Assembly (NCBI GenBank): GCA_965217865.1
Contig: CBDCJO010000002.1
Coordinates: 3,776,001 to 3,840,000 of the forward strand
DNA length: 64,000 nucleotides
Reading direction: 5' to 3'
Source: Candidatus Latescibacterota bacterium
GTDB taxonomy: Bacteria; Latescibacterota; UBA2968; SICM01
Under the pieces are notes generated by a model that worked only from the letters and a program-made list of their open reading frames with translations, did not search any database and was not told the origin of the DNA. The number at the start of each line of letters is the position of its first letter. Within the stretch, counting starts at the first letter, position 1. A program made the position numbers and the translations under genes. Below are positions 52,775 through 59,258 of the stretch, in pieces.

Positions 52775-53110
52775 ATGGAGCAACTGTCCTCAAACAGTGA
52801 CCCGGTCAAGAAGCGCAGGAGCTTGTCCCCGGAACAGAAGTATGAGATTTTCCTTGAAGCCAGCCGGGGAGATGTTCCCATTGCACAGGTGCTGCGGAAA
52901 TGGGGCATTCATTCCTCGGATCTAAAGCGTATTCGTGAGTCGGTCAAGTCCGGGGCCCTCAAGGAGTTCAAGGGTCGCCGGAGCCGCAAGCCGATGGTAT
53001 CGGCTGAGGAGGTGGAGCAGCTGCGCAAAGAGCGGGCACGCCTGGAGCAAACGATCATTGAGCAATCTGTGGAACTTTCCCTGCTAAAAAAAAGTGTGAA
53101 TGGGATCTGA
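52775..53110 (+). CDS. IS3-family OrfA (HTH + leucine zipper)
   Basis: SPEQKYEI...VLRKWGI, coiled coil, ends LLKKS over an A8G slippery run. Confidence 0.85.
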   Translation: MEQLSSNSDPVKKRRSLSPEQKYEIFLEASRGDVPIAQVLRKWGIHSSDLKRIRESVKSGALKEFKGRRSRKPMVSAEEVEQLRKERARLEQTIIEQSVELSLLKKSVNGI

Positions 53111-53133
53111 CAGGCCCGATCAAGGGCCACCGG

Positions 53134-54165
53134 GTGCAAGCTGAGGTCAAACGCGAGATCCTCTTAATGGTCTATCGGGCCAAGGAGAAAGGGGTGAAAC
53201 TCACCCGTTCTTGCGAGATCCTACAGCTTCCCCTCCAGCGGTATTGTGCCTGGAGCCGGCGAGATCGAGAAGAGAAGCTGGATGGGGTGTCGGACCCGCT
53301 TTTGGATGGGAAGCCCGGGCCCGCCCCTGATGAGGCCCCACACGGATTGCTGAGGGAGGAGAAAGAGCAAATCCCGGCCCTCTTAAGGGATGAGACCTAT
53401 GCCGATCTGCCTCCCCATCAGCTGGCGGTGGTAGCCTCAGAGAAGGGGGTAGTGCAGGCCTCGGCCTCCAGCTTCTACCGACAGGCCAGGAAAGAACGTC
53501 TGGCACGCAGGAAACAGGTGAGGACGCCGGTCAAGCAGAGCAAGCCCCAGGTCAAACCTGAAGGTCCTAATCAGGTCTGGAGCTGGGACCTGACCTACAT
53601 CCCATTTTTCGGTTTGTTCCTGTATTTTACCGCCATTCTCGACGTGTATTCCAGGAAGATCGTAGGATGGAAGCTCTCCTTCAACGCGACCGTGGAGCAG
53701 GTCAAACAGGCCTGGGATCAAGCCCTTGCCAACGAAGGACTGCTGGACCTGGACACTGGGCCCATAAGCTTGACAGCCCTCTCAGATCACGGATCTCAGA
53801 TGAAGGCCAAATCGATGGCCCAATTCTTCAAGGACCTGGGCATCTCGCAGCTGTTTGCCCGATATCAAACACCCACGGACAACGCCTGGATCGAAGCCTT
53901 TTTCCGGACATTCAAATACGACTGGCTGCGCTTCCAGGACATCTTCACATTCCATCAACTGGAAGGCCTGATTGATTCCTTCATTCACAGCTACAACGCC
54001 GAACGCTATCACGGGGCAATACAGTATGTCACGCCTCTTCAGAGGCATAAAGGCCAGCATCAAAAGATTCTTCACCACCGACAAGGTCGAAAGGAGGAGG
54101 CTCGGCAGCGCCGCATAGAAATCAATCGGCAAAGAACATCCCAGACCATCCACAAGGCTGCCTGA
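53134..54165 (+). CDS. IS3-family OrfB, rve integrase core (probably fused to OrfA by -1 frameshift)
   Basis: PNQVWSWDLTY, LDVYSRKIVGW, SDHGSQ, DNAWIEAFF. The -1 frame is open from the A8 run near 53086-53093. Confidence 0.9.
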   Translation: MQAEVKREILLMVYRAKEKGVKLTRSCEILQLPLQRYCAWSRRDREEKLDGVSDPLLDGKPGPAPDEAPHGLLREEKEQIPALLRDETYADLPPHQLAVVASEKGVVQASASSFYRQARKERLARRKQVRTPVKQSKPQVKPEGPNQVWSWDLTYIPFFGLFLYFTAILDVYSRKIVGWKLSFNATVEQVKQAWDQALANEGLLDLDTGPISLTALSDHGSQMKAKSMAQFFKDLGISQLFARYQTPTDNAWIEAFFRTFKYDWLRFQDIFTFHQLEGLIDSFIHSYNAERYHGAIQYVTPLQRHKGQHQKILHHRQGRKEEARQRRIEINRQRTSQTIHKAA

Positions 54166-56935: not shown

Positions 56936-57288
56936 TCAGCTACCTCCAACTGAATCACCCCCAGGAGGGAGGTTGGTTTCCCAACCCTCCAACTTTCGAA
57001 GTTGGGATTTGCCGGGAGACTTGCCTTCTGCTCAGAAAATCATCTCTCTTCCGAAACGAAAAGGCTTGAAGAGCATCGAAAATGGGTGAATTCACTGTGC
57101 CAAGAAGGGGAAAATAGGTTTCGGCCACGGTTTCTACCGCATTGAGCAGTATGCCGACTTCCTCATTGCTGAAGAGGTTTTCAATCAGCGTATAACTGGT
57201 GGAAGTCGAAGACTTTGTTTGGATCGAGGTGCATGGGATATTCCTTCAACCGGTTTTTTTACGTCATAAATAATTGCGCATATAAAAT

Positions 57289-57985
57289 TGAGGATGGACA
57301 ATGGACGATTGACGATGGAAAAGACCGTGAGAAGGCAAAAGGCAGTAGCAAGTAAGGCCCTTCCGCCCATCCCCACCGGAATACAGAATATAGAAGAATA
57401 CCTAAATTCAACTCAGTCGGCAGGACGTGAGTGTTCCGTTCACCCCCACCGGAATACAGAATACAGAATACAAGAGTCAGAAGAAGACCTAAAAAAGCGA
57501 GGGGTCAGAGGCCAGGGACCCTTCCGCCCATCCCTACCGGAATACAGAATACAGAATACAGGAGTCAAAAAAGCCGCGAAACGTCAAACGTGTAAGTCCC
57601 TTCCACCCATCCCCACCGGAAGACAGAATACAGGAGTCAGAAGAAGACCTAAAAAAGCGAGGGGTCAGAGGCCAGAGGTCAGAGGTCAGGGAAAAGAAAA
57701 ACCGTGAAACGTGATACGGCAAAAAAAGGCAGTAGCAAGTAAGGCCCTTCCGCCCATCCCTACCGGAATACAGAATACAGAATACAGGAGTCAGAAGAAG
57801 ACCTAAAAAAGCGAGGGGTCAGAGGCCAGAGGTCAGAGACCCTTCCGCCCATCCCCACCGGAATACAGAATACAAAAGTCAGAAGAAAACCTAAATTCAG
57901 CTCAGTCTGCGAGCCCGTTGAAGCGAAAATCTACGGAACATATGCGCAATTACTTAAGACGTTAACCCGTGGATCGTGGATCGGC
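57289..57985 (+). repeat. Mosaic array of shuffled modules and heptamer tandem repeats
   Basis: Six copies of CCCTTCCGCCCATCCC(C/T)ACCG (57358, ~57432 degenerate, 57519, 57598, 57745, 57840), each followed by (GAATACA)n. Also (GAGGTCA)n, TGGACAA/TGACGAT, CGTGAAA and CGTGGAT heptamers. Confidence 0.9.
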
Positions 57986-58065
57986 CTTTCCTTGCCATTT
58001 TCAGTAATCCTGCCTCTTTCTCCTGCCACTGTCATCTGTCGCAGGCTCAATATAATCTTCAATCG

Positions 58066-59094
58066 TCAATGCCTCTCTGCGTATCCCTTCCTCAACAGCT
58101 CCCCGTTTAAAAACCGCCCGTTTCTCAGCGCATCTTCCGCCGTCCCTTTTCGGTGCAGATAAAACAGGTCCGCCAGATACCGGTCGTACTTGTCCGGCTT
58201 CGTCGTCGTGATTGCCACAGACGTATTTTCTGAAAGCGCTGACGCCACGAATGCCCTGGCCTGCTGGCCCTCCCTGGTCCGAAGTTCCGGCGTGTCGATC
58301 CCTCTCAGCCGCACCTTCTGGCGGCTCCACACCTGGAACCCGCAGTCCACGTCCAGCCATATGGTGTCCCCGTCGATTACACGCTCCACGTAGGCCCGGT
58401 AGGAATAAAAGGCCCGCCTGTGGCGAATTGTCCGAAGCCTGAAAACCGGTTCCCCGTCACCCGGACCCCGAACCGCCTCCGCGAAGGTGCCTTCTTGGGG
58501 ATTATCGAGCCGATCCAGCGGCCTTTTTAGAAGGATTCCGAACCCCAGATCCAGGCGGAGGCCCCTTCCCCCCGGAGTTTCTATCAGTCGGTAGGTCCAG
58601 GGCTGTCCCCGCTTGGCCCGGAGTCGTGCCACCGGACTCTGTTGCGGTTGCTTAAGGCTCTTTGGGGGGAGAGAACAAGCGTGGATCTGGGCGGCCAGTT
58701 CCCGGGTGCTCCAACCGTATCTATCTGCTTTCTGAGCAAGGAGATACCGTTCGTCATCAGACGGCAGTTTTATCAGTCTTCGGTAGTGCGTCCAGGTCAA
58801 TTTTGAACGCGCGTGCAGAATTGGAAACGACCGGTGAAACCGAAGAGATTCATACAAAATCCTCTCGCTGATCCCCACGTCCTTCGCCATCCTGGCAATC
58901 ACCTGATCTCCGTAACCAGCCTTGGCCTTGATGGCAAGCAAATGCGCCTGGATCAATCCCCCAACCTCCCAGTAGGTCCTGACCTTTTCCCGTTCCACTG
59001 CCTGACGAGCCCGTTCCTTCCCCGCACTTAGAACCTTTGCGACTTCATCGCGTAAGGCGGTGTAAGTATTTATGATAAGGGGGTTGGGGTTCAT
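58066..59094 (-). CDS. DUF1016 (YhcG) N-terminal domain fused to a thermonuclease (SNase) domain; likely start 59094
   Basis: YWEVG..I, YGDQVI, LTWTHYRRLI, WSTREL (DUF1016_N). VIDGDT, VRLRGIDTPE, DKYDRYLA, LNGELLRKGYA (SNase). Confidence 0.88.
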   Translation of the reverse strand: MNPNPLIINTYTALRDEVAKVLSAGKERARQAVEREKVRTYWEVGGLIQAHLLAIKAKAGYGDQVIARMAKDVGISERILYESLRFHRSFPILHARSKLTWTHYRRLIKLPSDDERYLLAQKADRYGWSTRELAAQIHACSLPPKSLKQPQQSPVARLRAKRGQPWTYRLIETPGGRGLRLDLGFGILLKRPLDRLDNPQEGTFAEAVRGPGDGEPVFRLRTIRHRRAFYSYRAYVERVIDGDTIWLDVDCGFQVWSRQKVRLRGIDTPELRTREGQQARAFVASALSENTSVAITTTKPDKYDRYLADLFYLHRKGTAEDALRNGRFLNGELLRKGYAERH

Positions 59095-59258
59095 CGACTG
59101 AATCCTCTTCATCTTAGTGGCGCGTACCGGAATTAGCCTTGGGTCCAACCCAATTGTGAACACGCGTTCACAATTGGAATCGTGCGGTACAACCGAAGCG
59201 CCTCGTTCATCTTTTTGGTTGCGGTTGAGTGGAAGCAAAGCCCGCGATAGGCTTGGAG

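Follow-up and report, generated by a model that had tools for sequence, protein, structure and literature searches.

A stack of heptamer-armed modules in the shell of a dead IS630 element of a Latescibacterota genome

Results

Anatomy of the array

The window, by which we mean the whole 64,000-nucleotide stretch of Candidatus Latescibacterota DNA analysed here (positions 3,776,001 to 3,840,000 of contig CBDCJO010000002.1), contains a stack of short repeated modules lying beside a gene with DUF1016_N and staphylococcal-nuclease domains (Table 1). A 26-bp inverted repeat, 88% complementary between its two copies, brackets the stack. Module A occurs six times, at 57358, 57431 (a copy degenerate at its 5' end), 57519, 57598, 57745 and 57840, giving intervals of 73, 88, 79, 147 and 95 bp, and every copy is followed by one to three GAATACA-type units (B). 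Modules C and D occur together three times, and F and E twice each. These are the counts of an earlier sequence-only reading of the locus, which had placed E after B and did not mention the inverted repeat; E instead precedes A. Together A, B and either C or F make up a single ~80-bp dispersed unit, C being a truncated F. The same reading put all modules on one strand, which holds between the inverted repeats (62% purine, same strand throughout) but not for the stack that follows the nuclease stop codon (57988-58070), whose orientation is opposite. Its description of reusable modules in changing order is borne out, module A having 46 matches in the genome against one in a reversed-genome control.

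Table 1. Features of the array and its surroundings (window coordinates)
Feature	Position	Strand	Remark
Left terminal inverted repeat core, IS630 family	57258..57283	+	Outermost bases and TA target lost
H-family arm (GACGATG type) and G-family piece	57284..57336	+	Abuts left IS end
Unit 1: E + A + B + F	57337..57419	+	A-B-F is the 5' half of the B-family (GAATACA) palindromic element
Unit 2: degenerate A + B3 + C + D	57431..57515	+	
Unit 3: A + B3 + G-family piece	57519..57597	+	
Unit 4: A + B + C + D + G	57598..57723	+	
Unit 5: E + A + B3 + C + D	57724..57838	+	Mosaic of near-perfect copies of unit 1-4 parts
Unit 6: A + B + F	57840..57917	+	Ends at the junction that in sister relics adjoins a DUF1016N 5' gene fragment
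IS630 DDE transposase, last ten codons and stop	57925..57957	+	7/10 identical to intact element
Right terminal inverted repeat core	57940..57965	-	Outermost bases and TA target lost
J-family arm (CGTGGAT)	57968..57983	+	Outside IS relic
Counter-oriented stack of H, L, K-type arms	57988..58070	-	Follows nuclease stop codon directly; K and L assigned by eye
DUF1016_N and staphylococcal-nuclease gene	58066..59094	-	One of six long paralogs in the genome
In-frame AATT-N16-AATT palindrome in nuclease gene	58799..58822	.	48 copies genome-wide
Palindrome-centred fragment of another DUF1016N paralog	59140..59206	-	Upstream of nuclease gene

Matches of 25-87 bp to other loci, at about 85-98% identity, cover 93% of the array interior, and of the 12 tiles chosen between or on the array's two IS ends, 8 come from three sister relics. 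The piece abutting the left end is common to sister relic C2:195990 (64 bp, three mismatches), and the D-G part of unit 4 matches sister relic C2:1658512 (63 bp, three mismatches). The closest matches of the array are internal near-perfect duplications: parts of unit 5 recur within the array over 62 bp and 49 bp without mismatch, over 68 bp with one and over 59 bp with two. The earlier suggestion of accretion by copying reusable modules is supported both by these duplications and by the matches at other loci. Several segments find their best match at other loci, so the array is more than simple tandem duplication and slippage, and no long-period tandem repeat was found in it.

Contigs of eight public runs were aligned to the region, and pieces from several of these runs match array junctions without differences; no contig extends across the whole array, and most low-identity joints in these contigs derive from paralogous loci. 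Since junctions are reproduced without differences in the contigs of other runs, the array is real and no assembly artefact. In run X4 one contig joins 57277 to 57817, a 539-bp deletion form with a depth of 4.4 against 11.5 for the reference form. This single contig, with 30 letters on its shorter side, hints that the array is still changing.

Two further observations concern the DNA to the left of the array. The interval that separates the left IS end from the phosphate-transporter gene (56940-57236) contains an apparently broken minus-strand reading frame. An insertion sequence of two ORFs, one with an rve integrase core, lies at 52775-54165; it seems intact, and L035 has a similar copy.

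The shell is an IS630 relic

The 26-bp end motif has 34 sites in the genome, arranged as 13 inward-facing pairs with spacings of 277-772 bp, another pair separated by 4.9 kb, and six singles. The reversed-genome control of this first motif scan gave four matches at 18 bits or more; a degenerate end pattern, with a cleaner control, gave 27 genome matches against none. In all there are 18 relic loci, every one with a different interior. Several retain the 5' part of the transposase HTH gene, and the transposase remnants are 76-81% identical. The ten-codon transposase tail, all that the window relic keeps of the gene, is a weak match on its own (E 0.49), and its position supports the assignment. 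The end motif was found in none of 30 relatives and in no viral contig.

A metagenome scan for the IS ends found at least 122 stretches, about 80 of which were retrieved. Two distinct ones, L184 and L203, have both ends ~1.1 kb apart and encode HTH and DDE_3 domains in two frames; the 22-bp end core of the window relic also bounds these intact elements. TA stands at the expected position at 72/78 metagenome ends, at 10/34 genome ends and at neither of the two window ends. The catalytic domain of the relic's IS630 lineage was not found in the genome, where other IS630 families are present. No heptamer tract occurs in any of 56 metagenome IS interiors, and the fill is therefore foreign to the IS. 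Integrase remnants flanking two relics had raised an integron attC/attI or dif-like site as a reading of the 26-bp motif, which was dropped when intact IS630 parents came to light.

Of the 18 relics, 14 are filled with modules (13 identified by script, one by eye), always on the transposase strand, and they follow the transposase even in five relics set against the local skew. A multi-tract island lies within 700 bp at 11/18 relics, compared with 0/30 other IS630 loci and 2/18 Y1 loci. The relic family is thus special among IS elements, other IS630 and Y1 elements not being filled. The array is almost certainly the interior of a dead IS630 element whose transposase gene has been replaced by a module stack.

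The locus shares with IS630 elements and MITEs its terminal inverted repeats, the TA target and the two-frame HTH and DDE_3 genes of the intact parent, and internal deletion in the relics. It differs in that the interior of the window relic consists of foreign modules that are different in each copy, and 24 of the 34 ends lack the terminal TA position. The relics do not form a MITE family, as the 18 interiors differ and no partner transposase of the lineage was found in the genome. The BrickBuilt MITE of Porphyromonas gingivalis (PMC4596501) likewise has a repeat array within inverted-repeat ends at about 19 intergenic loci. BrickBuilt repeats a single 23-nt unit, and its leader and tail are constant (PMC4596501), whereas the array here has many unrelated modules that also occur outside the IS.

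Three other relic loci or groups deserve mention. The relic at C2:5015352-5015780 (L001:553-981) has an open 143-codon transposase HTH frame, whose product could bind the 34 surviving IS ends. At eight left ends the replacement begins within about 10 bp of the inverted-repeat core. Finally, the end motifs 4.9 kb apart at C2:3106520-3111395 (L003) surround two BNR-repeat genes and module stacks, with an extra degenerate end copy ~30 bp inside the right end motif; this pair is left unclassified.

Heptamer elements across the genome

The modules belong to a genome-wide population. Runs of period 7 number 191 in the genome, against 3-8 for periods 4, 5, 8, 10 and 11. A motif-set scan gave about 626 heptamer islands, a count that includes about 70 chance tracts and 105 islands overlapping crude gene calls; 187 contain more than one family. 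With its 14 tracts, the window array is larger than any other island. About eight heptamer families occur, stacked together with unique flanks and centres. Arm pairs of the same family are convergent in 51 cases and divergent in one, and gene-less heptamer palindromes are common.

The array modules are halves of these heptamer-armed palindromes. A-B-F corresponds to the 5' half of the B palindrome plus captured flank, and the right arm is missing in 36 of 37 A-B copies. Inverted heptamer arms around a centre are not found in the array, though they are present elsewhere in the genome for the same module families. The 226 co-oriented stacks fall into 109 orders in which some transitions are preferred but none is fixed, and the distal member of a stack is in most cases complete. 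Given these 109 different orders, the idea of a fixed master template was discarded.

H and I are the two arms of a single polar element. It occurs at about 53 loci (for example C2:4519358 and C2:1738361) as a ~110-bp asymmetric palindrome with a unique centre, and is usually complete and usually last in its stack. The J element, seen at C2:4645269-4645680, C1:31019-31290 and about 20 other loci, has a degenerate left arm, a conserved AT-rich centre often containing TTGAC, and a perfect (CGAATCA)n tail with an abrupt end, so that a conserved head is followed by 3-38 perfect tail copies. This layout resembles, by analogy, that of a short retroposon with a repeat tail.

The sequence-only reading had also proposed kinship with the 7-bp repeats around four-helix-bundle (TIGR02436) genes, and this finds support. 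The genome has four such genes (TIGR02436/PF05635), one of them frameshifted, and heptamer tracts lie beside all four, with clear inverted pairs at two; none has B-family arms. The four-helix-bundle genes of the related genome G001 are also ringed by heptamer tracts. There the B family forms plain palindromes without module A, and at L276, L279 and L280 B-family arms surround a separate GC-rich perfect hairpin at the centre. No four-helix-bundle gene lies within or near the array, the nearest being ~158 kb away. No second complete genome on which to repeat the polarity test described below came out of a search with these motifs: the B doublet occurs in 1/30 relatives and the D triplet in 4/150, all of them fragmented or with two matches. 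Cassettes of the 23S rRNA intervening-sequence protein, such as the Coxiella IVS (PMC4990558), are comparable in that heptamer arms surround such genes here and in G001. The array differs from a four-helix-bundle cassette in consisting of co-oriented 5' halves only, without such a gene.

The relation to other repeat classes is similarly partial. Cyanobacterial STRR are intergenic heptamer repeats. As summarised in PMC4692102 and PMC4679880, GGGAATC of Xanthomonas and TAACTGA of Beggiatoaceae are likewise dispersed intergenic 7-bp tandem tracts, often in convergent pairs. The elements described here differ from these intergenic repeats in being stacked from about eight families and oriented with strand skew; for Xanthomonas GGGAATC, PMC4692102 reports neither a leading- nor a lagging-strand preference. 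REP/BIME sequences with their RAYT (PMC3333891) are mosaics in intergenic DNA whose short motifs are reused in varying order and number; they disperse and are then locally amplified. The present stacks, 226 in 109 orders, are also mosaics of reusable intergenic motifs. Their units are tandem-heptamer arms in place of REP hairpins, and no Y1 transposase could clearly be tied to them, 2/18 Y1 genes (RAYT and IS200 pooled) lying near multi-tract islands; no GTAG-tagged 20-40-bp hairpin unit was evident by eye. The array behaves like a BIME-style mosaic in an IS630 shell, and is not an active IS, a MITE family, a CRISPR or a complete four-helix-bundle cassette. A CRISPR array, already rejected in the sequence-only reading, is excluded by the uneven spacing (73-147 bp), by recurring spacers that match dispersed repeats and by the lack of an Rfam CRISPR match.

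Orientation relative to replication

Polarity was measured against third-codon skew corrected for gene direction, the G/T-rich strand being the inferred leading strand. The purine-rich strand of the islands lies on the G/T-rich strand in 354 of 421 classifiable intergenic cases, and a motif-free recount gave 323/425 islands against a 54% background. The polarity is present in all four arrangements of flanking genes and through local skew reversals. It holds for 86/110 islands whose two flanking genes both run against it, and for 258/311 if genes closer than 2 kb to an island are left out of the skew calculation. As polarity can be built into the symmetry of palindromes, non-palindromic centres were also tested: those of H/I (43/49), J (22/23), F (12/15) and A (22/27) run with the inferred leading strand. 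The perfect J tails lie on the G/T-rich strand in 20 of 21 cases. Among 71 two-sided islands, extra families are origin-proximal in 22 and distal in two. Between two anti-oriented genes J is still polar (7:0), but H/I (3:5), A (4:5) and F (3:3) are not, so that transcription or small inversions must play a part as well.

Several features of the sequence support the G/T-rich strand as the leading one: skew changes sign at dnaA and two parS sites, its two signs extend over near-equal totals of 3.1 and 3.3 Mb, and rplB agrees. Counter to this reading, only 53% of genes and 20/43 tRNAs are on the G/T-rich strand, and the single 16S gene is against it. The chromosome has many skew reversals and the assembly is heavily rearranged. 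At dnaA and its two parS (C2 2.24 Mb) the flip lasts only about 50 kb, which together with the 16S gene set against the skew points to large recent inversions or mis-joins.

The heptamer elements thus show a fork orientation bias, with skew as its proxy, that weakens between anti-oriented genes for three of the four asymmetric motifs. Single-strand transposition of IS200/IS605 at the fork (PMC3971601) gives a comparable orientation bias relative to GC skew; the heptamer elements differ in having no known transposase, defined ends or cleavage sites.

The neighbouring nuclease

Among the best 50 matches listed, a fold search with the nuclease returned staphylococcal nuclease variants only, and the acidic and arginine residues at the presumed active site are invariant in 50 sequences; we take these to correspond to the nuclease active site by residue numbering. 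At a stricter cut-off the AATT palindrome has 45 copies with the N16 spacer against 0-2 for other spacer lengths, and a further site lies at 59152-59175 in the window.

Within this genome the nuclease and the relics are closely associated. Five of the six long paralogs lie 40-1,200 bp from a relic right end, in the same orientation and downstream-adjacent, and 15/18 relics have DUF1016N-SNase sequence. Within 1.5 kb of an IS end lie 31/48 DUF1016N gene pieces (against 1% of the genome), and 23/48 palindromes are no more than 300 bp from an island, a distance at which 11% of intergenic positions lie. Relic right ends have one common junction, of a DUF1016N 5' fragment with the IS tail, and some 450 bp of the window gene are identical to the paralog at C2:1660302. 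This common junction and the ~450-bp identity indicate that the nuclease-relic loci are copies of each other.

Beyond this genome the picture is different. The sequence-only reading had suggested a possible link between array and nuclease, to be tested at homologous genes; co-location holds within this genome, among loci of shared descent, and the link is not general. Among 80 homologue loci in other genomes, six were excluded for having less than 500 bp downstream (one of these six with a short tract), and 6 of the remaining 74 have a 7-period tract within 1 kb downstream. No tracts were seen for control periods 5, 8, 10 and 11, which makes the heptamer tracts at these loci a slight enrichment. 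In nearer relatives 1/19 homologue loci has a heptamer tract downstream, one locus having unread downstream bases. The nuclease as a general writer of arrays was rejected since homologue neighbourhoods rarely hold heptamer tracts.

The best named homologues are from Latescibacterota assemblies. DUF1016N-SNase genes of many lineages (L051-L130, L253-L272) contain, ~250 nt from the gene start, an in-frame 22-30-bp palindrome that stays symmetrical although its sequence changes; in this genome copies without the gene are scattered as well. In relatives the gene is multi-copy (up to eight matches per genome), with sharp borders common to different contexts, and so may itself be a small mobile unit.

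Discussion

On balance, and with reserve, we favour a proposal in which stacked 5' halves, copied in piecewise from other loci at replication forks, took the place of the transposase gene, either by template switching primed by microhomology or by gene conversion. A gap or break at the fork would be repaired by a 3' end annealing to a short purine-rich motif in another copy, copying 25-90 bp and switching again, so that target DNA would be both deleted and replaced. The inverted-repeat cores would survive because replacement halts there, perhaps because they are protein-bound. Filled relics and the DUF1016N-SNase sequence of an ancestral relic would then have been copied between loci, making the nuclease a travelling companion and not a required writer. 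Repeated A-B units would seed local duplication, which could account for the window array being the longest stack. Junction microhomology was assessed by eye, and the copying step is a proposal drawn from sequence comparison. The genome encodes SbcD, with which breakage of palindromes would be available. Sister relics could also be deletion products of a larger ancestral array, which would reverse the direction of copying. Generic repair does not explain period 7, or the fixed head of J and its perfect 3-38-copy tail.

The main rival, which we consider unlikely overall, is a dedicated mobility system (a four-helix-bundle protein with host polymerase, a reverse transcriptase or an HUH enzyme) that would place polar ~100-bp elements in the single-stranded DNA of the fork. 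Every newcomer would target an older element and remove its distal half, giving a stack. Whole asymmetric elements in fixed head-to-tail orientation, the 51:1 excess of convergent same-family arm pairs, a complete element that is usually distal, the perfect and variable J tail, and heptamer tracts at all four four-helix-bundle genes here and at those of G001 would all fit such a system. Fork-oriented insertion is known for IS200/IS605 (PMC3971601). However, no enzyme could clearly be tied to the modules from the protein classification of the three reverse transcriptases or the positions of the Y1 genes, of which 2/18 are near islands. The four-helix-bundle genes number only four, one frameshifted and none with B-family arms, and module borders and orders vary. 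The three reverse transcriptases (L287-L289) comprise two Drt4-like proteins, below the curated cut-off, and one unclassified protein beside a Fic gene.

More speculatively, and with rather little confidence, an undescribed fork-coupled DNA-writing system can be imagined that lays polar ~100-bp elements along the direction of replication and overwrites the DNA between protein-bound sites, the array being a record of writing events. Self-targeting DUF1016N-SNase or four-helix-bundle proteins may supply breaks or template handling. In this reading the IS ends and DUF1016N palindromes would be the protein-bound sites, and the elements laid down would include those that combine a fixed head with a variable perfect tail.

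It is improbable that the nuclease itself causes the arrays, by binding its own palindrome and nicking or cutting nearby so that the breaks are filled with modules. The proximity of five of the six long paralogs to relic right ends, of 31/48 gene pieces to IS ends and of 23/48 palindromes to islands would be expected, as would the invariant residues presumed to form the active site in a predicted staphylococcal nuclease fold. Yet their common junctions show that these loci are not independent of each other, only 53 of the 626 islands are near a palindrome or IS end (573 being away from both), and the intact paralog C2:1796140 is 34 kb from any island; tracts at homologues are rare (6/74 and 1/19). 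The fork-oriented elements were likely copied in at the replication fork and not written by the neighbouring nuclease.

A quite improbable alternative is a single ancestral mosaic, with the array grown by tandem duplication and slippage and the sister relics its deletion products. The most nearly identical matches are indeed internal (62 bp/0, 49 bp/0 and 68 bp/1 mismatches), and the filled relics all have one polarity, several with common junctions. Against this, there is no long-period tandem, unit 5 mixes parts of four units, and neither the 226 stacks in 109 orders nor the polar unique centres are accounted for.

Rho loads on pyrimidine-rich RNA, which read-through from the nuclease gene would yield, and the D and A modules can pair locally, but a functional RNA template or transcription terminator under selection is very improbable, as the array has no Rfam match, and a weak fold (z -2.4, with 1/20 shuffles as stable), to which the IS ends contribute. 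A scan of the array gave no terminator and no more promoter-like sites than chance would, and each relic has a different interior. The processed non-coding RNA array once suggested for the locus is unsupported, given the same Rfam and fold results and the dispersal of modules singly across the genome. The array is probably without host function.

A literature search, which covered few subscription journals, listed no paper on stacked heptamer modules in IS relics, their replication polarity or DUF1016 palindromes. The feature is real, and it is a variant of a known, still unexplained repeat class. The origin and spread of intergenic heptamer repeats is an open question in the papers cited here, which this genome makes testable. 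On our reading the spreading unit is a ~80-110-bp asymmetric element, not a bare microsatellite, which is oriented with skew and replaces target DNA. The locus also illustrates how junk loci can come to lie next to a nuclease gene simply through common ancestry. The dead IS, whose original sequence is known, serves as a ruler by which deleted DNA can be told from DNA that was copied in.
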